64,000 bases of DNA from a virus (taxonomy: Duplodnaviria > Caudoviricetes): positions 369 to 64,368 of IMG/VR virus record IMGVR_UViG_3300018063_000004. One strand, given 5' to 3'. The notes below the pieces were generated by a model. It made no database searches, was not told the origin of the DNA, and saw nothing but the letters and a program-made list of their open reading frames with translations. The position numbers and the translations under genes are program-made. Below are positions 1,996 to 64,000 of this stretch, in pieces. The number at the start of each line of letters is the position of its first letter. Position 1 is the stretch's first letter.

Positions 1996-2715
1996 ATGAA
2001 GGTGAACCTGCCCAAGATCGGCGCTCGGTTTGGACGTTGGACAGTCCTCGGACGGCCTCGGGTCTGGAGCTACCGGTGGTCTGTAAATTGTCGGTGTCGA
2101 TGCGGAACGCGCCGCCGCGTGAAGGTCCAGAACCTGACGCGCGGCCTGAGCCGATCCTGCGGCTGCCTGAGCCGAGAGATTCAGCGCCGTCTGAAGACGC
2201 GTTATCGAGTGCCGCGGAAGGGCACGCAGTTTGGCCGACTCGTCATTACAGGCGGCGCGATTCGTGACGCCGGTGATCGGAAGATCCGGGTTCCGTGTCG
2301 TTGCGCCTGCGGCAAGAAGTGCGTCAAGGATATCTACTCGCTGCGCTCTGGCGCGATTCGATCGTGTGGTTGCCGACGAGGCAACATCACACACGGTGAA
2401 TCGAGACGAACCGTCGAATACCGAGCCTGGCGCGGCATGCTGACGAGGTGCTACAACCCAAAAACGCAGTTCTGGCGCTACTACGGCGGCCGACGGCCGC
2501 CAGTTCGCGTCTGTGCCCGCTGGCGCAAGAGCTACGAGGCCTTCCTGGCCGACGTGGGTCGTCGGCCGAGCCGCCGGCACTCCCTCGACCGCAAAGACAA
2601 CGACGGCCATTACGAACCCGGCAATGTGCGCTGGCGAACGGCTACACAGCAGGCCCAGAACCGCCGCCCCATGCGCCGATCGAGAACTGGTCGAACGCTG
2701 CATCGTGCTCCCTAA
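1996..2715 (+). CDS. HNH homing endonuclease inserted antisense in the tail operon
   Basis: Two FGRW/L..CxCxCG..SCGC repeats, THG, MLTRC, YGGR, SLDRKDNDGHYEPGNVRW; TACCCT -10-like box 7 nt before ATG (possibly leaderless). Confidence 0.9.
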   Translation: MKVNLPKIGARFGRWTVLGRPRVWSYRWSVNCRCRCGTRRRVKVQNLTRGLSRSCGCLSREIQRRLKTRYRVPRKGTQFGRLVITGGAIRDAGDRKIRVPCRCACGKKCVKDIYSLRSGAIRSCGCRRGNITHGESRRTVEYRAWRGMLTRCYNPKTQFWRYYGGRRPPVRVCARWRKSYEAFLADVGRRPSRRHSLDRKDNDGHYEPGNVRWRTATQQAQNRRPMRRSRTGRTLHRAP

Positions 2716-2790
2716 AACAAAGAGCGCCCGGGCGGCAATCTCAATTGAGATCGCCGAACCGGGCGCTCGGGTCCTCCGTCACGCCCATGC
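2713..2790 (-). promoter_or_regulatory. Attenuator copy 1: CGGAGGACCCG hairpin overlapping an intrinsic terminator
   Basis: GGGCGT-gaCGGAGGACCCGa-GCGCCC competes with GAGCGCCCGG..CCGGGCGCTC-TTTGTTTT. Confidence 0.8.
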
Positions 2791-2809
2791 GAGATCGTGT
2801 GGCGCCGGC

Positions 2810-5843: not shown

Positions 5844-8531
5844 TTACGGGACGATCGCGCCGGCGAATGGCCGGAAGTCCATGATCGCGCCGCCGTAGAT
5901 TTGGCGGATCTTATACGTGAGCTGATCGTTCGAGAACATCGACCCCTGGCTCGGCAAATCCTGCACGAACAACTCCGGGGTTTCTTGGCCGTCCAGGAAG
6001 CCGATCTCGAGCATCGGCGCTTGATCGATCGAGGCCGAGACCCAATAGTTGTTCACGTCCGACCAATATTCAACTACGATCGTCGTGAGATTCAGCTTCT
6101 TGACGAAGTTCGGATCATTGTTGTTTGAGCCGAGCACGCGATCCGACGTGGTGAGCTGAAACGCCAGCTCCTCGAGTTCCGATGGCACGATCAGATAGCG
6201 CGCCGCCAGGCCGATGCGCTTCGCGTTCGACATATCGGCTTGCTGTTTGATTCGCAGCCGGAGCGTCGAGACGTTCGCGCCCGAGAGCGCCGTGGTCACG
6301 ATGTTGTTCCCGTGGCCGGCCGCGGCCAGCGCCACGCCGTCATAGATGAGCGCGTTGTTGTTCAGGAAATCCCACGCGAACTCATGCAGCGTTTGCGCGG
6401 CCGCACGCGCGAGCTTGTTCGGGACTCGGCGGACGGCGCCGACATCGTCGTTCTTGATCATCTCAAGCGTGATCTGCTCGGTCCCGCCGCGCTTCGCCGG
6501 CGAGTAGGTCGCCTCTTCGTCCGTCGGGCTCGTCATGGACGGATACGGCCCGCCCTGCGTGACGATCGCGAGGTTCCCGTAGCCGCCGAACCGCATACGC
6601 CGCACGGTCCGGAAGTCGGAGAGTGGGACGACCTCGGCGATGGTGCCGCGCCAATTCGCCAGGCCGCTATCCGCGTAGTCCTTGAGCATCCGGCGCGTGA
6701 TGCTATCGCCGAGGATCTGATCGAAGCTCGACGTCGTGAGCGATTCCGTCAGTCTGATTTCCGACAAGCGCCGCAGAACAGCTTCGCTGATCTTGCCGTT
6801 GACCTTTGTATCGCCCGTGATGTCAACGTAGATTTCCTTGAAGCTCTGGAGCGGCTTCATCGGATCGAAGAAGTTGGCGAGCCGTTCCCGGACTTTGGCC
6901 GTCCCGTCCGTCACGATTTGCACGCGCGGGAGGCCGACGTGTGGCATGACGAGGTTCGCTTCGCGCAGCGCGCCCACGTCCTCGACCGCTTCCTTGATCG
7001 CGAGTGTGACCTCGTCCTCGGTCGGAAGCTGGCCTTTGCCGATTCGCTCCGTGAACTTTTTCCGCAGACGTGTTTTGAACACGTCGGGCAGCGCGCACTC
7101 GAGCAGCGATCGCTCGAGCATCATGCCGGCGAAGTTCCGAGCCCCGGACTGATTGCTCGTCTCGAGTGCCGTGATGCGCTCGAGCAGCGCGGTGCGATCG
7201 GCCGCCTCGGTGATCGTCGCGGTTGCGCCGGCAGCCGGCACGGCGGCCGCGGCAGGCACAACAGCAACGACAGGAACGACAGGTCGAGCGGCGAGCGCCT
7301 CAGTGAGCAGACGAGTCGCCGTGGCCTCGTCGCACCCTTCCGGCACGGTCACGCCGGCCTTTTTCAACGACTCGATCAAATGCTGCAACATGCGAACGTC
7401 CTCCTGAAGCTGTGGATTGGCCGCTTCGGATGCCACGAGACGGAGCACGCGCCCGCCCGCGGACGGATTCAGAACCCAATCGACCGATTCGACTTTGCGG
7501 ATGGCGTTGACGTCGTAGGCCGCGCCGTCGGCGAGCTGCACGACCTGGCTCTCGGCCCGCACGTCATGTGAGAGCCCGAAAAAGTCGGGATGGCCTTCCT
7601 GGTAGGCGTCGAGTAATTCCTCCCGGAAGTGTTTCTTCGTGACAACGGCGGTGCCCGCCAGCGCCAGAAGGCTGGCGCCGCCATCGGCTTCGGTGGTGCT
7701 CGAGAGCACGACCGGCCGGATGTTTTTCGCGAAGCCCATCGCTTCAGCGCCCGAGCGGCCGAACGGCCCGGTCTCGAGCTTGTGATCGAGAAACATCCGC
7801 GCCTTGTCGTAGAGCGGCGCGGCTTCGGCCAGGACCTTCCGGTTGTAGCGGTTGCGGTTCTTGCTCATGCCTTCTTGAATGAGCAGCACGTCCCACAACT
7901 TGCCCGTTGGCGCGCTCCCGGCGGCCTCCGCCACGGGCCCGAGGACCTCGGCCTGGATCCGGATCAGGTTGCCGGCCGCGGTGGTGATGATGGACTCGAG
8001 AAAAGCGCCCTCGCGCACGGGCGCGTATTTTTGAACGACTTCGATCGGTTCGCCCTTGAGTTCAACCGTGCCATCGATCGTCCAGGTGTAATCGATCCGC
8101 CAGAAGCCTGGCTTCCCGACGCCGATGCTTTCCTTCCGGAAGATGACGTAGTCGTCATAGGTCGCGACGGGCCAGACATAGCCCATGCGACCGTTGTCTT
8201 TGGGCAGGAAGCGTTGCCGAAGAGCATCCGACACGCGCGACAGGCGTTCGTCCAGCGAGAGCCCGTTCTTCGCCTCAGCCGTGCGTTGAAGGATCGCTTC
8301 GAGGATCCAACTATTCACACTCGACTCCTTGTTGCGTCGGATGAGGTCACCGATTGGATTGCCAGCACGATCGAGGACCTGCACAGAAACCATGTCGGCG
8401 GCGATGATTTCTTCGGCTTCCGCCTTCGCTTTGATCGCGCCGCAGATCCGACGCGCGCGCTCGGCCGATTTGCCCTGACTGACGTGATCGGCCACGCACG
8501 CATCAAAATCCGTGTAACCGGCAAACGGCAT
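5844..8531 (-). CDS. Prohead protease-scaffold-major capsid polyprotein (Mu gpT-like capsid)
   Basis: Protease-like region (MFLDH, FGLSHD, SVDWVLNPSAGG), helical scaffold, capsid motifs (SDFR, ITLEMIKNDD, YLIVP, GFLDG..PE); likely ATG 8531 just after the terminator U-tract. Confidence 0.9.
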   Translation of the reverse strand: MPFAGYTDFDACVADHVSQGKSAERARRICGAIKAKAEAEEIIAADMVSVQVLDRAGNPIGDLIRRNKESSVNSWILEAILQRTAEAKNGLSLDERLSRVSDALRQRFLPKDNGRMGYVWPVATYDDYVIFRKESIGVGKPGFWRIDYTWTIDGTVELKGEPIEVVQKYAPVREGAFLESIITTAAGNLIRIQAEVLGPVAEAAGSAPTGKLWDVLLIQEGMSKNRNRYNRKVLAEAAPLYDKARMFLDHKLETGPFGRSGAEAMGFAKNIRPVVLSSTTEADGGASLLALAGTAVVTKKHFREELLDAYQEGHPDFFGLSHDVRAESQVVQLADGAAYDVNAIRKVESVDWVLNPSAGGRVLRLVASEAANPQLQEDVRMLQHLIESLKKAGVTVPEGCDEATATRLLTEALAARPVVPVVAVVPAAAAVPAAGATATITEAADRTALLERITALETSNQSGARNFAGMMLERSLLECALPDVFKTRLRKKFTERIGKGQLPTEDEVTLAIKEAVEDVGALREANLVMPHVGLPRVQIVTDGTAKVRERLANFFDPMKPLQSFKEIYVDITGDTKVNGKISEAVLRRLSEIRLTESLTTSSFDQILGDSITRRMLKDYADSGLANWRGTIAEVVPLSDFRTVRRMRFGGYGNLAIVTQGGPYPSMTSPTDEEATYSPAKRGGTEQITLEMIKNDDVGAVRRVPNKLARAAAQTLHEFAWDFLNNNALIYDGVALAAAGHGNNIVTTALSGANVSTLRLRIKQQADMSNAKRIGLAARYLIVPSELEELAFQLTTSDRVLGSNNNDPNFVKKLNLTTIVVEYWSDVNNYWVSASIDQAPMLEIGFLDGQETPELFVQDLPSQGSMFSNDQLTYKIRQIYGGAIMDFRPFAGAIVP

Positions 8532-8610
8532 GGCCAAAAAAAAGAGCGCCCGAAGGGCGAGCTGTGAAGCTCGAGTCCTTCGGGCGCTCGGGTCCTCCGC
8601 CGCGCCCGGC
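8532..8610 (-). promoter_or_regulatory. Attenuator copy 2 upstream of capsid gene
   Basis: CGGGCGC-ggCGGAGGACCCGa-GCGCCCG versus terminator GAGCGCCCGAAGG..CCTTCGGGCGCTC-T8. Confidence 0.85.
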
Positions 8611-8629
8611 GGGATCACGATCGATCGAC

Positions 8630-8830
8630 TTACGCGGCCGGCAGCGTGTAGCGCCCGGTCCGCATCATCTCAACCGCTTGCGGATCCTCCACGGGAAGGC
8701 CGTCGGCCTCCCACGTTTCCTCTCGCTTGACGATCCCGATCTGGCCCTTGCGGAACTGAATATGGATCGTCCCGTAGAAGTCCCGCCGGACGCATTCGAG
8801 TAAGAACTGCACAAGACGCGCGAAATGCAC
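8630..8830 (-). CDS. Small DUF2292/YezD-like protein, candidate RNA-binding regulator
   Basis: 66 aa; FYGTIHIQFRKGQIGIVKREET resembles the YG.V.I..QDG.V.QIE..EK pattern; stop lies about 20 nt before attenuator copy 2. Confidence 0.55.
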   Translation of the reverse strand: MHFARLVQFLLECVRRDFYGTIHIQFRKGQIGIVKREETWEADGLPVEDPQAVEMMRTGRYTLPAA

Positions 8831-8833
8831 CCG

Positions 8834-9244
8834 CTAGACTCCGGCCAAAAAATGCACCCGCGAACACTGACACCCGAAGCCAGGATCTGGTCCGCCAGCG
8901 TCCTCTCTGAACAAAATCTCGCCGCACGCACCCGGGATGTCCTCGGTCATCAACACCTTGACTGTGACCCCAGTCGCCGCGTCGACGACCTCCCGCGGCC
9001 GCTGCCGGCGTTGCTTGCACGCCAGAATGAGCGCGAGGTCTTGTCGATCGAGTTCTTCGGCCAGGCCGACGAACATCCGACGGACTTTCTTGACGAGCAC
9101 AAGGCGCCGGCGGCCGTCCCCATCCCGACCTCCTTCGGCCGCCTTGCCGTCCTCGGTGCCGCCCTCTGGGAGAGCAGCCAGGTGCGCCGGCACAATGAGA
9201 CCGCTGGCACGTTCGGCGAGTTGTCCCGAGAGCGACGCGTTCAT
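8834..9244 (-). CDS. Hypothetical protein with possible Zn site
   Basis: Coupled ORF; C..C..CxC residues. Confidence 0.55.
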   Translation of the reverse strand: MNASLSGQLAERASGLIVPAHLAALPEGGTEDGKAAEGGRDGDGRRRLVLVKKVRRMFVGLAEELDRQDLALILACKQRRQRPREVVDAATGVTVKVLMTEDIPGACGEILFREDAGGPDPGFGCQCSRVHFLAGV

Positions 9245-9753
9245 GTCACACGAGGATCGCGAATGAGATACGCGCGCAACCGTTGCCGGGCCCTCGAGAG
9301 CGCCCGTCGGTCGGTTGCGTCATGTGCTACATAGACCGTGCCGAGCCCCAAACTGTGACAGATCAACGTTTTGTCATGGGATTTCAACCGGTTCAGCGCG
9401 TCCGTGAAGGCCTCGTGCCGACGTGCGTTTCGGAGATGTTCGTCTGGATCGACCACGGCCTCATGGGGATTCGTGAAGGCCGCCAGGCGGTCGCGCGTGC
9501 GCTCAAATCGGGCGCGGTCCGCGTGCGTATCTCGAGCGACAGACACCGTCACGCGGTAGATCCAGGTGCGAATGGCGCCCGGATCCCGAAGGCCGTTCAT
9601 GCTCTGACAGAGCCGGAGGCCGACCTCGGCGACGACGTCGGGCGCTTCATCGTGCCCAACCTCCTGCACGGCAACGGCTTCCACGAAGCCGCGGTGCTGC
9701 GCGAACACGTCGCCGATGCGTTTGCGATCGGCTTCATTCAATCGCACGCGCAT
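9241..9753 (-). CDS. ECF-type sigma-70 factor
   Basis: Region 2 (APDVVAEV..L, TWIYRVTVSVARD) and region 4 end (LSRARQRLR). Confidence 0.75.
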   Translation of the reverse strand: MRVRLNEADRKRIGDVFAQHRGFVEAVAVQEVGHDEAPDVVAEVGLRLCQSMNGLRDPGAIRTWIYRVTVSVARDTHADRARFERTRDRLAAFTNPHEAVVDPDEHLRNARRHEAFTDALNRLKSHDKTLICHSLGLGTVYVAHDATDRRALSRARQRLRAYLIRDPRVT

Positions 9754-39915: not shown

Positions 39916-40236
39916 TCACGTGGGCTTCGTCCAGGTAGCTGCCGGCGTGCTTGATAAGGAGGCGAGATTCAATTTACGCTCCCCGTCCTGAGCGCCTGGC
40001 GCCTGCGGGACGTGTCTCTTCGCCAGCTCGAGGGCCCGATCGAGATCGTCCTGGTGGAACCGAAGCTGCCGCCCGCCGCGGAGGCGGTAGGGAATGATCC
40101 CCATCCGGGGATAGGCGAGGTAGAACGCGTGGAGTGTGCCGTTCCCGGACTCGAACCGGAGGTAGGCCGCGGCTTCCTCTGCCGTGAACCACGGCGATTG
40201 GATGGCCTTGCCGCTGACGGTGGCGACGGCCCTCAC
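39916..40236 (-). CDS. Excisionase-like HTH
   Basis: WFTAEEAAAYLR..LRF..DDLD. Confidence 0.75.
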   Translation of the reverse strand: MRAVATVSGKAIQSPWFTAEEAAAYLRFESGNGTLHAFYLAYPRMGIIPYRLRGGRQLRFHQDDLDRALELAKRHVPQAPGAQDGERKLNLASLSSTPAATWTKPT

Positions 40237-40556: not shown

Positions 40557-40602
40557 TAGCCTTGCCGCACGGATAGTGCCATGGCATCGGCCAGCACGTC
40601 AA
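40557..40602 (-). promoter_or_regulatory. Lytic promoter with operator
   Basis: TTGACG-N18-CACTAT (TG extension) directly followed by operator CCTTG-CCG-CACGG (40560-40572 on +). Confidence 0.6.
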
Positions 40603-40727
40603 GCGCCCCCTACACTAGCGGCACAGACACGCGTGGCATTACAAGATGGCGGCCCGGGTGTGGAGCCGCCGCCGGCCTGATTGTGGGAACACCTGAGCGG
40701 AAGGAAGACGCTCAGCCGGGACACGCG

Positions 40728-41117
40728 ATGAACCGAACCACACACACGGAACTGATCCAGCTCCTCAAGGCGGAGATCGACAAGCGCGGCAGCGCGCGCG
40801 CCCTGGCCAAACTGATCGGCCTGACCGAAGGCCGACTCGGGCGCGCGCTGCGCGGCGAATTTTCCTTGAGCGTGGAGAAATGTCTGCGGGTCTCGAAGAT
40901 CGCGGGGGAGCCGCCCTCGCGCGTGCTCCGGGCGGCCGGCAAGGGCGGGATTGCCGACCTGATCGAGGACCTCTATGCCGTCGGCGACGATCTGATCAGC
41001 CCGTCGGAGCGCGATCTGCTCGCGCGGTTCCGCGTGCTCGGCCCGAAGGCGCAGCGCACGTTGCGTGATCTCCTTGACGAACTGCCGGACACCGGCTCAC
41101 GTCAGAAGCGCGCGTAA
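40728..41117 (+). CDS. CI-like repressor (HTH plus short helical C-terminal domain, no S24 peptidase)
   Basis: SARALAKLIGLTEGRLGRALRG; C-terminal ERDLLARFRVLGPKAQRTLRDLLDEL. Confidence 0.8.
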   Translation: MNRTTHTELIQLLKAEIDKRGSARALAKLIGLTEGRLGRALRGEFSLSVEKCLRVSKIAGEPPSRVLRAAGKGGIADLIEDLYAVGDDLISPSERDLLARFRVLGPKAQRTLRDLLDELPDTGSRQKRA

Positions 41118-41375
41118 CACGATGACGATCGATGAGGCGAGTTGCGAGATGAGGGAGCGCACGATCCGCTTCACGCGGGGAGAGAGTCGCGCGAAGTCTC
41201 GAAGGGTGTCTCGATCCTCGCGCGTGGCGACGCCAGTATTCTGGCTCGATTTGAACGGCACGATCGTCAGAGGCGCGCGGCGTCGCTGAGAGCGATCGGG
41301 TTCGACGTTCACGGGCGCGGCAATAAGGCCCATAGACAGATTCTCGGCGCCGGGGGCTCGCATATGTATACTCAA
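41097..41375 (-). CDS. Small protein resembling repressor C-terminal domain
   Basis: DRDTLRDFARLSPRVKRIVRSLISQL; upstream TTGAAA-N18-TATACA; start uncertain (perhaps 41333). Confidence 0.55.
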   Translation of the reverse strand: MSIHMRAPGAENLSMGLIAAPVNVEPDRSQRRRAPLTIVPFKSSQNTGVATREDRDTLRDFARLSPRVKRIVRSLISQLASSIVIVLRALLT

Positions 41376-41465
41376 GACAAGCCCGGCTTTTCAACCCACG
41401 GTTCTGTAATCCGATTGTCGATCTTCGTGAACCACGTTCACACTCGTGTAAGATTCTCTCTGGCA

Positions 41466-41500
41466 GCGCGCGGAGGACCCGCGCCCGTATGGGCGTTTTT
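41466..41500 (+). promoter_or_regulatory. Attenuator-like copy at the integrase start
   Basis: GCGCGG-AGGAC-CCGCGC hairpin overlapping GCGCCC-GTAT-GGGCGT-TTTT. Confidence 0.6.
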
Positions 41501-42592
41501 ACTCGCCACGATTCGCCGTTCTACTGGATCTGGCTCGAGCGGCCTGGCCGCAAGGGCAAATCCGAAAGCACGAAAGTGCCGATCGGCGCGCCCACGCCAG
41601 GCCAGCGTCGCGATCAGCGGTTCCTCGCCGCGCAAATCTATCGCGCGCGCATGACGGACCTCGCGCGGCAACGCCATCGGATCCAGGCCGGCGAGCGCGT
41701 GACGATCGGCTTTACCGCCTACGCCGAGTGGTATCAGGCACACTTTACGGTCCACAAGCGCACGGCCGCGCGCGAACGGTCCGCGATCAAGAACCTCATC
41801 GCGCACTTTAAGCCCTACGATCTCGACGAGATCGATAAGGGGACCGTCATCGAATGGCGCACCTTCCGGAAGCGCCACGTCAAGGCCTCGACGGTCAACC
41901 GTGAGCTGGACGTGCTGAAGCACATGCTCAAGGAGGCCGTCCCGACCTATCTCGACCACTCGCCGATCGCCGGCCTCAATCGACTACGCTCCGCGAAGGC
42001 CGCGATCCGCATTTTCACGACCGAGGAGGAAGTGCGATTTTTCGCCGCGACGAAGGACCTCGAGGAAGCGGCGATCATGTTGATTGCGCGGGACACGCTC
42101 ATGCGGTTGTCAGACGTGAAGAGTCTGCAATGGGCGAACTGCCGCGGCGACTACATCATGGTCATCGATCCAAAAATCGAGGCCTATACCGCGCCGGTCT
42201 CGCCACGGCTGCGCGAAGTCCTCGAGGCGCTCCCGCGGCGCGGCCGGTTCCTCTTCCCGAGCCGGCAGTCCGGCCCCGGCTCGCTGTCGGCGAACACCGT
42301 CCATCGGTTGTTTGTGGAGATTTGTCAGCGGGCAGAGATCCCGCAAGGACGGAAACGCAATGGCGTGACGTTTCATTCGCTCCGCCACACGGGGACGACG
42401 CGCGCGCTCGAGCGCGCGGTGCCCGTCCGCGGCGTGCAAGCGGCCGGCGGCTGGCAGAGCATCAAACAGCTCGAGCGATACGGTCACGTGACTGATGAGA
42501 ACGTGCGCCTGTTTCGTGAGCGCATCGGCCAGGGCGACGATCTGACGCAGATTCTGCGCGATCGGATTGACGGCAAGACCTCGATTCACTGA
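41489..42592 (+). CDS. int: Tyrosine integrase
   Basis: STVNREL, TLMRLSD (R), PK, HSLRH, GW, ERY catalytic set. Confidence 0.95.
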   Translation: MGVFTRHDSPFYWIWLERPGRKGKSESTKVPIGAPTPGQRRDQRFLAAQIYRARMTDLARQRHRIQAGERVTIGFTAYAEWYQAHFTVHKRTAARERSAIKNLIAHFKPYDLDEIDKGTVIEWRTFRKRHVKASTVNRELDVLKHMLKEAVPTYLDHSPIAGLNRLRSAKAAIRIFTTEEEVRFFAATKDLEEAAIMLIARDTLMRLSDVKSLQWANCRGDYIMVIDPKIEAYTAPVSPRLREVLEALPRRGRFLFPSRQSGPGSLSANTVHRLFVEICQRAEIPQGRKRNGVTFHSLRHTGTTRALERAVPVRGVQAAGGWQSIKQLERYGHVTDENVRLFRERIGQGDDLTQILRDRIDGKTSIH

Positions 42593-42890
42593 GCGCGGCG
42601 CTGCGGCCTACGTCCCACCTACGCGGTCCGTCGCCCGTGGCGAAAAGGCCAGAAAACCCACTCGATTTCTGTGGTTGATTGTGCGTTGGGGACGCCAGCC
42701 TTCCCCCGTCGCTCACCTACGGATTGTCCGAACGAATCCGCGCGATCGTCAATAGAATCTCTGGGAAACTCGGCGATCGCGAGTGCTCGGGAGTGTGGGC
42801 GTTCTTCTCAGGAGTTCTCTGGAGTCGCCTACGCCGCGCCTACGCCGGAATGATTATGGGTTGTGATTATTATTATTAATGCGCCGCTCG
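42593..42890. mobile_element. Probable attP region
   Basis: Non-coding, downstream of int; CCTACG at 42607, 42618, 42716, 42828, 42839; AT-rich patch 42850-42880. Confidence 0.6.
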
Positions 42891-42969
42891 ATTTGGCCGA
42901 CCTTGCGTAGTCGGCCGCTCCGGTGCCACCGGAGACGCCTCGCAGGCCCAGAGGCGGGCGTGGCGAAGA

Positions 42970-43272
42970 TCAGACGTGCCCGTGCGAGGGCAGCACCCGG
43001 ACCAATTGCGGGCGCTCACCTTCTGCACGCGGAGCGGGCACGACAATCAACTGATACCGCTGCGGGCTCGGACCTCGATAGCGCAACGCACGAGCGCCAG
43101 CGGTGTTGATTGGGACGGGCTGGCGGCCGCTCGCGATCGTCGTCTCCGCCATCGCGATCAGCGCCTCGCTCGCGCGATCGAAAATCGGTCCCTGGGTCAC
43201 GTCGGGCTGGCCCGTCAGCGCCAAGTAGTCGCGGACGGCACGCACCGAGATATACCAGGGACCGCGCATCAT
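42970..43272 (-). CDS. Hypothetical protein (possibly RNase/toxin-like fold)
   Basis: WYISVRAVRDY..LRYRG..YQLIV..QLVRV. Confidence 0.45.
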   Translation of the reverse strand: MMRGPWYISVRAVRDYLALTGQPDVTQGPIFDRASEALIAMAETTIASGRQPVPINTAGARALRYRGPSPQRYQLIVVPAPRAEGERPQLVRVLPSHGHV

Positions 43273-50907: not shown

Positions 50908-52545
50908 TCATCGCTGTTGTCCTTTCAACAGCACCGCGGTCGGAACGCCCTCGAGCGTGAACTCCTGGCCGGCTGCCAGCTCGAGATGGCGGAGGACTTC
51001 GCCGGTTAACGGATGGATCACGTCGAACGCGATGGCCGCGCGAGGCCTCGCCGTCACGGGCGCGCGGATCCCGAACACCGCGACAACGAAATCGGATCCG
51101 CGCGTGGCCGCATAGGCGCGCACGATGCGGTTCTCGTCAACCGCGCGGTCGAATCCGCTGAAGGGAAATGAGCCCCACTGCGCGTTATGCCTGGCCCAAT
51201 TCGCCACGCCAGGCGGAAGCGCGGCCGTCATCGCACGGAACCCGCCGGCGATTTCGGACCAGCCCGGCAGCTCCCAAAAGTTCGCGTGTCGTGGCGGAGC
51301 ACGCGCCAGGTCCGCGGCGCCGCCGCCGCGGATCCCGGGCCCGGCATGGAACACATAGCCGCCGTTTTGAGCGATGAAGGTGACGAGATAGGCCGTGACG
51401 AGATCGATCGGTTGATCGTCGGCGTTGATCGAGGCCTCCGGCCCGATCGGTTCGTTGTTCAGGACGACCGGCGGAAGCTGGCCGTTGCAGCTCGCGTCGT
51501 ATTCATCCGGATAGCCCCACGGCTGCCGGACCGGACGAAATTGATATCGCTGCCCGTTGAGCGTGAAGCTATCGCTTCGATCATCCCGCTCATAGTGCAT
51601 CGTCGCCGCTCGAGCGCCGGCACCGGCATAGGTGTCGCACGCATCGGCGGCATTTTGCGGAGCCGTGAGCGCGACGATATTCGGGACACGATCCTGAAGG
51701 CGTCGGCCGAGCGCGCGCAATTCGGCGTGTCCGGGGCCGCCGGCGAACCCGTTCTGCCAGCCTTCGTTCGCGACTTCATAGGCGAAAATCTTGTGTTCCC
51801 GGCCGGCCGTCATCGCGGCGAAACGATCGACGACTTGCTGGCGAATCAGTCCGCTCGGCGTGTGTTCCGATCCGCCGAAGATCGTCCATTGCACGCGGAG
51901 GCCGAAACGGTCATACGCATAATCGGTGAAGCCGGCGATCGTCTCGTTGTAATCCGGCCAATTGATATCCGTCGTCCGGTCAGCCCATCCGCCGACGGGC
52001 CCGACGGATCCGAGCACCCGGAGATACGCAACGCCGGCATCCTTTAAGGTGGAGAGATTCAGATCGAGGCGATCGCGATCGAACTTGTAACCCCATGCGC
52101 CCCAAAACACCGTGGCGCCGAGCGGATTGAAACAGCCATCGTCATCGCACGCCGCGTGCGCTTCGCGACGGACGAGCCCGCGGCGTGCCGACGCCGCCGG
52201 AGGTCCGCGCGGTTCGATCCCAATCGGCACGTCCATGTTCGCGACGAAGGGATCCGCCGAGACTGTCCGTTCGATGTAGCCATCGCGCGTGATCGTGACG
52301 CCCCGGCCGCCGATCTCGAGTTCCCATGCGAGATAGCCGTCGCCGTTTGTCGTGCCGGTCTCGCCCGTATGCAAGGCCACCGCGGCGCCCTCGAGCGGAC
52401 GGCCGCTCCGCGCATCCGTGACGATCACGGCAAGCGTTGCGCGTGCGGGTTCTGGCGGAAGAGGAGGCGGGCGCGGCCCGGGATTGATGGCGCAGCTTAG
52501 CGTGACGCTCAGAATGGCAAGCGGACATGAGACACGACGGAGCAT
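50908..52545 (-). CDS. Lipoprotein with beta-sandwich and GH5-like glycoside hydrolase domain
   Basis: Lipobox TLSC; YLRV, YEVANEG, MHYER, NNEPIG. Confidence 0.7.
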   Translation of the reverse strand: MLRRVSCPLAILSVTLSCAINPGPRPPPLPPEPARATLAVIVTDARSGRPLEGAAVALHTGETGTTNGDGYLAWELEIGGRGVTITRDGYIERTVSADPFVANMDVPIGIEPRGPPAASARRGLVRREAHAACDDDGCFNPLGATVFWGAWGYKFDRDRLDLNLSTLKDAGVAYLRVLGSVGPVGGWADRTTDINWPDYNETIAGFTDYAYDRFGLRVQWTIFGGSEHTPSGLIRQQVVDRFAAMTAGREHKIFAYEVANEGWQNGFAGGPGHAELRALGRRLQDRVPNIVALTAPQNAADACDTYAGAGARAATMHYERDDRSDSFTLNGQRYQFRPVRQPWGYPDEYDASCNGQLPPVVLNNEPIGPEASINADDQPIDLVTAYLVTFIAQNGGYVFHAGPGIRGGGAADLARAPPRHANFWELPGWSEIAGGFRAMTAALPPGVANWARHNAQWGSFPFSGFDRAVDENRIVRAYAATRGSDFVVAVFGIRAPVTARPRAAIAFDVIHPLTGEVLRHLELAAGQEFTLEGVPTAVLLKGQQR

Positions 52546-52590
52546 GGGATCCTCCTCCCAATGCCCGCGTCGGGTCCTCCGTGCGCGGCG
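52546..52590 (-). promoter_or_regulatory. CGGAGGACCCG hairpin copy without U-tract
   Basis: CCGCG-caCGGAGGACCCGa-CGCGG followed by TGGGA-GGAGGA-TCCCA hairpin over RBS and start. Confidence 0.7.
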
Positions 52591-52617
52591 GCTGAACGAA
52601 AACGAGTGTGGCCTATG

Positions 52618-53145
52618 TTACGGCACTTCGAGCAGCGAAAAAGTTAATGCCCGATTTTCTAAGCCTTCCTCAAATTTCTTGTCGACGCTCCCGCCTGGAT
52701 TGGTGCTCATGTCGATCATTTGAAGACGCGCGCCGATCAGCGCCTGGTTGACAAGCCACTGGTCCGCGTTCGTGAGCGCCGCGATGGTCGGCGCGTCCAT
52801 CTTACTCGAGCGCGCCACGCGGAGCACGCGCTGCAGCCAGCGGATCGCGAGGCCTTCACCGGAGTTGTAAGCCATATCGATCGCCTGCAATCGCAGCGGC
52901 TCGAACGTGATTCGATCAAGGCCGGCCCGGTTGGCGAGCTGGCTGAGCTTCCACCGAACGATCGGCCGAGCTGTGTCGACAGCGAGTGCCTTGAGTTCGG
53001 CGAGGGTCGCAGGCCGCCCGAGATATTCCGAGAGCGTCGGCAAGATGATTCCTCCAGCTCCGGTGGGTTGGTCGATTTCCGGCGGTTCTGCGTAGCGATC
53101 CCCTTCCTTCCGGAACACGTCATCGATCACTTGCTCGATCGTCAC
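52618..53145 (-). CDS. Endolysin, GH108-like
   Basis: EG..Y..P..D..T..GI; DMAYNSG..AIRWLQRVL; KF..G..NR. Confidence 0.8.
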   Translation of the reverse strand: MTIEQVIDDVFRKEGDRYAEPPEIDQPTGAGGIILPTLSEYLGRPATLAELKALAVDTARPIVRWKLSQLANRAGLDRITFEPLRLQAIDMAYNSGEGLAIRWLQRVLRVARSSKMDAPTIAALTNADQWLVNQALIGARLQMIDMSTNPGGSVDKKFEEGLENRALTFSLLEVP

Positions 53146-63773: not shown

Positions 63774-63866
63774 AAAAAAAGCGCCCGGCGCGAGTTACCG
63801 ATTGGCAACAGATTGTTGCCACTGGTAAGTTCACGCCGGGCGCTCGGGTCCTCCGTGACGCCGGCG
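63774..63866 (-). promoter_or_regulatory. Attenuator copy upstream of tape measure
   Basis: GGCGT-caCGGAGGACCCGa-GCGCC versus long terminator AGCGCCCGGCG..CGCCGGGCGCT plus T-run, directly followed by ATG. Confidence 0.85.
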
Positions 63867-63904
63867 AATAACTTCCTACGTGAGAAGCGCCGCTTACGAC
63901 TTCA

Positions 63905-64000
63905 TCATCGTTTCTTGCCTGGCATTCGCACCAGCGGGATACTCGACAGCAAGGTCGCGATCATCGTGAGCTGGCCGGCCTGATCTCGTTCCCGATCGAT
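63905..64000 (-). CDS. Probable C-terminus of the frameshifted chaperone (partial)
   Basis: Open frame IDRERDQAGQLTMIATLLSSIPLVRMPGKKR*; expected position before tape measure; frame not certain. Confidence 0.45.
   Translation of the reverse strand: MDRERDQAGQLTMIATLLSSIPLVRMPGKKR

Follow-up and report, generated by a model that had tools for sequence, protein, structure and literature searches.

What is one to make of an integrase gene whose start codon lies in one hairpin and whose only Shine-Dalgarno (SD)-like sequence lies in another, the two being unable to form together? The question is posed by int, the tyrosine integrase gene of a Caudoviricetes virus (Duplodnaviria) represented by a stretch of 64,000 nucleotides (positions 369 to 64,368 of IMG/VR record IMGVR_UViG_3300018063_000004), here called the window. 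A first-pass annotation, made from the letters of the sequence, had pointed to both hairpins, to the GGAGG in the first and its distance of 12 nt from the start, to the overlap of the two and to the start codon in the second, and all of these are present. It had further supposed that the same hairpin serves the late genes, with control of opposite sign. The answer favoured here, to which we would give a probability of about 0.4, is that the int leader is a miniature and the fifth member (E4) of a family of RNA switches acting in cis, particular to this phage and read by a putative factor, with late genes being turned on and int translation off.

The two hairpins of the int leader (Table 1) are mutually exclusive because GCGC at 41481–41484 is common to both. 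The second has six pairs, five of them G-C, a 4-nt loop and TTTTT, that is the GC-rich stem and U-run of an intrinsic terminator, and ATG 41489 lies within its loop and 3′ arm; as a terminator it is weak (about −10.5 kcal/mol), and such patterns are no commoner than in shuffles. The ATG is the true start, with MG[VI][YF].R at the same column in 19 of 20 aligned homologues and no canonical in-frame start between TAA 41408 and 41489. GGAGG is the sole GGAG or GAGG in the 40 nt upstream of it, and their separation of 12 nt is outside the 4–9 nt of an ordinary SD as found in the other genes of this phage, where GGAGG or AGGAGG sites are 4–8 nt from starts. On their own these structures are not remarkable for such G+C-rich DNA: the local fold of 41420–41540 is unremarkable (z = −1.26), a terminator scan gives one site at int versus 2.4 expected in shuffles, and 10% of random genomic flanks placed around the core motif fold as well as those of E4. 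What lifts them above chance is the core that they share with other sites.

That core is an 11-mer, CGGAGGACCCG, of which the 64-kb phage has five exact copies where 0.08 would be expected, none of 100 shuffles reaching five; with one mismatch allowed there are eight matches versus 3.2 expected. All five copies lie between predicted genes and are oriented like the next gene downstream, the distance from motif to start being 64 nt at E1, 57 (or 51) at E2, 71 at E3, 7 at E4 and 25 at E5. The supposition of a same hairpin thus holds for the core, E1–E3 being in the structural-gene operon, and not for the full 17-mer of the int hairpin, which has no second copy (with up to three mismatches there are four matches versus 2.6 expected; the pattern GCGCGG-N3-9-CCGCGC has two versus 1.16). 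E1–E3 have 19 bases in common, CGGAGGACCCGAGCGCCCG, including eight identical bases after the motif, and these are followed by a variable inner stem-loop, then CGGGCGCT(C) and then seven or eight T. E4 reads CGGAGGACCCG-CGCCCG-TAT-GGGCG-TTTTT, which is the flank, stem base and U-run of the late copies with the interior missing, and to judge from this sequence likeness it is a miniature paralogue of the late-operon element, not a chance look-alike. No copy occurs before the putative packaging/portal-side genes (15.9–20.7 kb; a label without support from any search) or in the early region. A further short sequence, (C/T)GTAA(G/C), is present 20–41 nt upstream of each copy (2810–2812, 8630–8632, 63894–63896, 52618–52620 and 41449–41451); at E1, E2 and E5 it serves the preceding gene as stop codon, a role that it does not have at E3 and E4.

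Where the late copies stand is as telling as what they share. E1 follows a 96-aa gene (stop 2810) and precedes one of 251 aa (ATG 2703), which has AGGGAG as its own SD and is followed by the gene for the tail-tube protein (PF18906, 6.9e-9), E1 being also placed two genes upstream of the tail tube; E2 is between the 66-aa gene (TAA 8630) and that for an 895-aa protease/major-capsid fusion (5844–8537, minus strand; phrog_29592 1e-152, phrog_4523 1e-42); E3 is directly 5′ of a 1387-aa tape-measure-like gene. In a scan of the whole circular genome, E3, E1 and E2 are the three strongest hairpin plus U-run sites, at −48 to −50 kcal/mol, weak hairpin plus T patterns being as frequent as in shuffles. 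Neither the capsid gene nor the tape-measure-like gene has an SD, their first possible start comes no more than 4 nt after the U-run, and TTG 8537 overlaps the U-run. As the capsid reading frame stays open upstream through the terminator, the first-start call at 8618 is wrong, and the start is likely to be ATG 8531 or TTG 8537, with no adjacent SD. With strong terminators directly 5′, and neither SD nor room behind them, these genes can be expressed from upstream only if the terminators are overcome, and either read-through or re-initiation (a restart within the terminators) is needed. Since the motif is the sole sequence common to all the sites, the family very likely serves late-gene expression. 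E5 is between the endolysin gene and a 545-aa gene, whose own SD, GGAGGA, is in the loop of the second hairpin there and whose ATG 52545 is paired. The 545-aa protein itself (50908–52545, minus strand), whose gene has those for endolysin and holin on either side, begins with what looks by eye like the N-terminus of a lipoprotein and has a sub-threshold CarboxypepD_reg match (27.3 bits versus a cut-off of 32.3 bits); the translation initiation region (TIR) of its gene, in which the SD is in a hexaloop, is the fifth most structured of 64.

Pairing of the bases that precede the motif with bases that follow it gives, in every one of the five copies, a hairpin, hairpin A, with CGG / AGGAC / CCG at its top. 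At E1, E2, E3 and E5 its lower and apical stems are separated by a 2x1 internal loop with an invariant A as 3′ base; at E4 it is a continuous 6-bp stem without the internal loop. In an ungapped alignment (A2; five sequences, one genome) 86% of cells pair versus 69.4 ± 5.0 in shuffles (0 of 500), slid controls being 28–46% paired, and the covariation score is 0.48 versus 0.21 in shuffles (1 of 500). Five pairs change on both sides, as with GGCG/CGCC in E1–E3 versus CGCG/CGCG in E5. Compared with random genomic flanks, the energy of hairpin A stands out at E2 (p = 0.004), E3 (0.018) and E1 (0.028). The 5′ arm of the second hairpin is in every copy the 3′ arm of hairpin A, beginning at the last G of the motif (E1–E4) or at its penultimate base, C (E5), and this second hairpin is a terminator in E1–E3, a mini-terminator with the ATG in E4 and a start-codon-pairing hairpin in E5. 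It is the default at four of the five sites, the cost of forcing hairpin A being 6.1 kcal/mol at E1, 14.2 at E2, 9.0 at E3 and 7.8 at E5; only at E4 is hairpin A the minimum-free-energy (MFE) structure and forcing it costs nothing, the values in isolation being −11.8 kcal/mol for hairpin A and −10.9 for the mini-terminator. The notion of opposite-sign control gains some support from these energies: the late ground state is a terminator or sequestering hairpin, and a hairpin holding the SD is the ground state only at int. It is the pairing pattern, together with the compensatory changes between copies, that favours an RNA mechanism.

How might such a family operate? A putative factor acting in trans, produced together with the late genes or earlier, would bind the AGGAC loop and lock hairpin A. 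At E1–E3 the base of the terminator stem would then be lost and transcription would run into the structural genes. At int, where hairpin A is already the ground state and contains the sole SD-like sequence, binding would bury the ribosome-binding site (RBS) and stop int translation in late growth, while changing termination little; with the factor absent, the near-isoenergetic pair of hairpin A and terminator would keep int expression low. Action as RNA, the existence of a factor and the sign of its effect are what we infer from the motif family, its positions, its alternative pairings and their energies. A more specific version, in which a late regulator, possibly the 136-aa protein, rich in Cys/His and Arg, or the 66-aa protein encoded just before E2, binds the 11-nt hairpin motif with opposite outcomes, local antitermination at the three terminators and shut-off of int translation, we regard as rather doubtful.

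Only by position, the products of three genes (8630..9753), namely an extracytoplasmic function (ECF)-like sigma factor and the 136-aa and 66-aa proteins, are candidates for the factor. The 136-aa protein has five homologues, and its AlphaFold model, with a mean predicted local distance difference test score (pLDDT) of 52, is too poor for a fold search; its sequence makes it a reasonable candidate for a nucleic-acid-binding or anti-sigma role. Within the structural gene cluster it may form a sigma/anti-sigma pair with the sigma factor (8834–9753 for the two genes) or be a regulator that binds zinc. The choice of the first-pass annotation had fallen on the 66-aa protein (8630–8830), to which nothing points: it has no Pfam or PHROG match and two homologues, and small viral proteins come up as a feature-based lead (0.81–0.89), 18% of one cluster having DUF2292, which is a weak lead.

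Several observations weigh against the proposed switch. No candidate factor has a recognisable RNA-binding or antiterminator domain, and CsrA, CAT_RBD, ANTAR and Phage_antitermQ have no match in six frames of the phage (CsrA is found in only one of five host-lineage genomes). The five sequences that gave the structure used with alignment A2 also served to test it, and as E1–E3 are paralogues there are only about three independent versions of the lower stem. The hairpin A energies of E4 (p = 0.10) and E5 (p = 0.17) are not individually unusual. At E5, forcing hairpin A leaves an 8-bp hairpin that still covers the ATG, so that the switch logic is incomplete there. By structure the int TIR (−19.4 kcal/mol) is 10th of 64 phage genes, whose mean is −13.5 with a standard deviation of 5.0. 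In favour of E4 being maintained, it surpasses in structure 34 of the 35 related integrase TIRs compared (mean −12.1, standard deviation 4.3). The T-run of int forms codons 3–5, GTT TTT ACT, which in this phage account for 9% of Val, 27% of Phe and 4% of Thr codons, and a relative (L178) encodes the same MGVFT with GTC TTC ACC; such rare codons are suggestive only as a sign that E4 is maintained, and the run is not decisive because 17 of 64 genes have at least three A/T-ending codons among codons 2–6.

Comparison with other sequences adds to this side of the balance. The 35 non-redundant related int leaders compared come from integrases at most 47% identical in protein sequence (homologues at 55–72%, P0002–P0008, fall outside this set), and the motif or either stem is present in none of them. 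It had been reasoned earlier that relatives conserving only the GGAGG would mark it as an ordinary RBS; with GGAG or GAGG at 4–18 nt in only eight of the 35, this counts only weakly against the proposal, the element being a lineage-specific one and the relatives as distant as they are. A TTTT early in the gene is found in one of the 35, and many of the leaders are abutted by an upstream stop triplet. Two contigs with a 64% identical capsid protein carry CGGAGGACCCG once, as a plain RBS 1 nt before GTG, and no terminator precedes the capsid gene in them. A looser pattern gave 87 single matches in IMG/VR, none with a matching terminator, and the exact 18-mer gave one unrelated coding match there, no other contig having it in a comparable context. 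Rfam gave no match at gathering over the window and none at E ≤ 1 around int; around E2 there were sub-threshold hairpin look-alikes only, the best being ctRNA_pGA1 (25 bits versus a cut-off of 45 bits). Among the sequences compared, the motif family is, as far as sequence matching tells, confined to this genome, and the proposition that one factor could control int and the capsid and tail genes via a shared element rests on that one genome. The phage had no nucleotide match in a phage collection, and a single-protein scan of IMG/VR retrieved its own record only. In a distantly related viral contig (L005, 6960–7010), GGGAGGACCCG is followed by a CCCGG...CCGGG hairpin and, about 30 nt later, by an ATG, an SD-hairpin-start layout reminiscent of E2 and E3.

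Need the 11-mer act as RNA at all? It could be a DNA-level signal, either a promoter element, for instance for the ECF-like sigma factor of the phage, or a stoperator-like protein site. As a promoter it would let transcription begin anew a few bases further on, within the terminator's 5′ arm, so that new transcripts would escape termination; at int the start would be at or next to the A of the ATG, giving a leaderless int mRNA that is on with the late genes. The sigma gene just upstream of E2 is in keeping with this, and so is the way all five motifs point to a start codon 7–71 nt away, which would explain their positions and orientation (the int motif ends 7 nt before the ATG), as well as the tightness of the gaps from the terminators to the capsid and tape-measure-like genes, into which no promoter of their own would fit. 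Asymmetric oriented repressor sites are reportedly spread over mycobacteriophage genomes (PMC9283540) and would be a precedent for a protein site on DNA. A precedent for a special int leader is provided by staphylococcal prophages, whose int genes are preceded by a conserved stretch of 40 bp that acts as a sigma-H promoter (PMC2869324). However, an ECF-type sigma normally requires two elements, and inspection by eye of 60-nt flanks reveals no second conserved block at fixed −35/−10 spacing, only the 11-mer being common to all five; CACACTCGT is common to E4 and E5 but at different distances. Moreover, the flanks differ between copies yet stay complementary, which fits RNA pairing and not a protein half-site, and the packaging/portal-side genes and the early region go without a copy. 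A DNA-level signal seems to us unlikely.

More prosaically, CGGAGGACCCG could be the favoured SD plus spacer of this lineage, with a plain distant SD at int, the hairpins being GC-rich background, and with a terminator or stabiliser hairpin between SD and start at E2 and E3, whose folding would rejoin them (a hairpin-bridged SD). The use of the identical 11-mer as an RBS in the capsid relatives is just what would be anticipated, and no other SD precedes the capsid or the tape-measure-like gene; once the hairpin has closed, about 9–10 unpaired nt separate GGAGGA from the start (TTG 8537 at E2, ATG 63773 at E3), near the 12 of int, and neither the shuffle-level frequency of weak hairpin plus T patterns nor the int fold calls for anything further. 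Such a cassette would be superfluous, however, at E1 and E5, which have their own SD by the start, and would leave unexplained the upstream complementarity and its covariation, the identity of the eight bases after the motif in E1–E3, and the passage of RNA polymerase through three terminators of about −50 kcal/mol; the int spacing, too, exceeds all other GGAGG-type spacings in the phage. We consider it an improbable account. Or is E4 just history, a duplicated or recombined late-operon terminator that has no role beyond low int expression? Such an origin would leave what is observed: neither the 35 related int leaders nor any other viral contig searched has the element, its hairpin energy is ordinary for the motif in this genome, and E4 alone of the five lacks the 2x1 internal loop. 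Against this, the 11-mer, the CGCCCG...GGGCG arms and the T-run have been kept despite overlap with a conserved protein N-terminus and at the price of three rare codons, and the two hairpins are balanced within about 1 kcal/mol; an inert relic, too, has a low probability in our judgement.

If the RNA switch is accepted for the sake of argument, which established systems does it resemble? Lambda N and Q modify polymerase once and act processively. As with N at boxB (nut) and with Q, a phage must here read through terminators for its late genes, and a small conserved hairpin would be the RNA handle; unlike there, each terminator has its own copy of the handle and overlaps with it, suggesting an action that is local and based on structure, and no Q family match is found. 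The coat protein–operator hairpins of the RNA phages MS2 and PP7, and T4 RegA, exemplify translational repression, and a late protein on a hairpin with SD or start shutting translation is what is proposed for E4 at int; in those cases the same hairpin is not known to act also as an antiterminator. CsrA/RsmE sites have GGA in a hairpin loop, often over an SD. The AGGA in a short hairpin loop overlapping the SD at int is similar, and E5 even has a second GGA-loop hairpin 19 nt downstream, but no CsrA match exists in the phage and the exactly conserved 11-mer is far more specific. T4 genes 38 and 25 have hairpin-bridged arrangements of SD and start, and at E2 and E3 an SD-like sequence and a start likewise flank the base of a stable hairpin; here, in contrast, what they flank is a complete terminator, U-run included, and two of the five copies come with an SD apart from the motif.

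For int itself, lambda has activation of pI by CII and retroregulation by sib. Like these, and like the staphylococcal sigma-H control (PMC2869324), a dedicated element by int would tie its expression to developmental state; none of them is known to have, as here, a terminator-like hairpin over the int start or an element in common with late-gene terminators. Similar in logic is the antitermination of LicT/SacY/BglG type at ribonucleic antiterminator (RAT) hairpins (PMC5393181): in both, a short hairpin of conserved sequence overlaps the 5′ arm of a more stable terminator, and the antiterminator would need a bound protein. Hairpin A does share bases with the 5′ arm of the terminator at E1–E4, and the terminator is the thermodynamic default at E1–E3, not at E4 with its hairpin A as MFE structure. 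Unlike the RAT systems, the phage has no match to a CAT_RBD/PRD protein, the loop sequence is unrelated, and several copies occur in one long late operon with one on a translation start.

Table 1. Features discussed, with positions in the window and strand
Feature	Position	Strand	Remarks
E1	2714..2792	−	motif 2768–2778; terminator 2722–2768; TTTGTTTT 2714–2721
E2	8536..8613	−	includes hairpin A flank; motif 8589–8599; terminator stem-loop 8544–8589; T8 8536–8543
66-aa protein	8630–8830	−	last gene before E2
136-aa protein	8834–9244	−	invariant C76, C107, C125, C127, H131; DGRRR; directly after sigma gene
ECF-like sigma factor	9241–9753	−	PF04542 (Sigma70_r2) 3.1e-7; phrog_1740; just upstream of E2
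HTH_17 protein	39916–40236	−	near int
RecT gene and SbcC-like gene		−	near int; profile matches
178-aa protein	40581–41117	+	upstream of int; XRE-type helix-turn-helix matches, all sub-threshold (E about 0.01)
Non-coding region upstream of int	41118..41467	+	lower G+C; palindrome and second ACGTTCAC
E4 hairpin A (hairpin 1)	41468..41484	+	GCGCGG 41468–41473, loop AGGAC 41474–41478, CCGCGC 41479–41484; about −11 to −12 kcal/mol; ground state
E4 core motif CGGAGGACCCG	41471..41481	+	in int leader; GGAGG at 41472–41476
E4 mini-terminator (hairpin 2)	41481..41500	+	GCGCCC 41481–41486, GTAT, GGGCGT 41491–41496, T5; about −10 to −11 kcal/mol
Tyrosine integrase (int), 367 aa	41489..42592	+	PF00589 1.1e-17; phrog_1 4.5e-44; N-terminus fixed by homologues
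E5	52535..52595	−	motif 52571–52581; hairpin A, no terminator; second hairpin 52535–52572
E3	63774..63869	−	motif 63845–63855; terminator 63779–63845; T-run abuts ATG 63773

The setting of int deserves mention. The IMG/VR record is of 64,368 bp (G+C 62.7%) and the window covers nearly all of it; given the terminal overlap of 123 bp (window 63878–64000 with record bases 1–123), the record is a circular assembly with a circle of 64,245 bp. The 245 genome bases outside the window include part of a 118-aa gene upstream of E3. Relatives of the integrase are found in genomes of Vicinamibacterales and other Acidobacteriota, from which the host is probably an acidobacterium. Fragments in a DNA sequencing run are identical to the phage, those over 41351–41545 with no differences, and are uninformative on variation or junctions. 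For the 178-aa protein encoded upstream of int a relative in the PDB was looked for and none found. Between it and the integrase there is no convincing open reading frame (41118–41488), and a promoter scan gave no sigma-70-like site upstream of int on the plus strand. A palindrome, GTGAAC-CAC-GTTCAC, is at 41427–41441, 27 nt upstream of the int hairpin, the second ACGTTCAC is at 41305–41312, 129 nt further upstream than the palindrome, and a similar TTCCTCTCTCTGG is just 5′ of the start in a related Vicinamibacterales int leader (L082); the palindrome area, to go by its sequence, may be an operator, an activator site or a promoter region for int.

Downstream of int an attP-like region extends over 42593–42970. 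CCTACG occurs five times within 42607–42845, three of the seven window copies of CCTACGC are there, and an AT-rich run is at 42850–42880; TCTCTGG is at 42758 and 42816, with a third copy in the int leader at 41457. Repeats typical of arm sites are thus downstream of int, not in the leader. The idea that the leader (41455–41495) is itself attP or host-derived was rejected, its matches at three inspected loci in 301 genomes reading as unrelated coding sequence, and a search for attB in 5 + 301 genomes of the host order, with the leader and the region downstream of int as queries, gave chance-level matches only.

The regulation of phages of Acidobacteriota is, to our knowledge, practically uncharted, and our searches, none of them aimed at that topic, brought up no such phage on which bench work had been carried out. 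The logic of an antiterminator hairpin overlapping a terminator is known, as is that of an operator hairpin over an SD; what appears new is the motif, its recurrence at each terminator within a structural operon, its renewed use at the start of an integrase, and the host group. In the literature on int leaders, antitermination and stoperators no such arrangement is described in what was searched (listings and one abstract). Were the motif to be a promoter, int would be leaderless and driven by a late-type signal, likewise unusual, and under either reading the element explains how a capsid gene can be placed directly behind a terminator. For synthetic control, the 11-nt loop, the three strong terminators and the one translational operator offer elements that can be put to the test directly. 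A family behaving in the proposed way would amount to late-gene antitermination in a compact and local form, unlike the N and Q paradigms, and, if the int part is true, to a rare case of the same RNA handle repressing an integrase, with a single RNA code coupling the late switch to the machinery of lysis and lysogeny.

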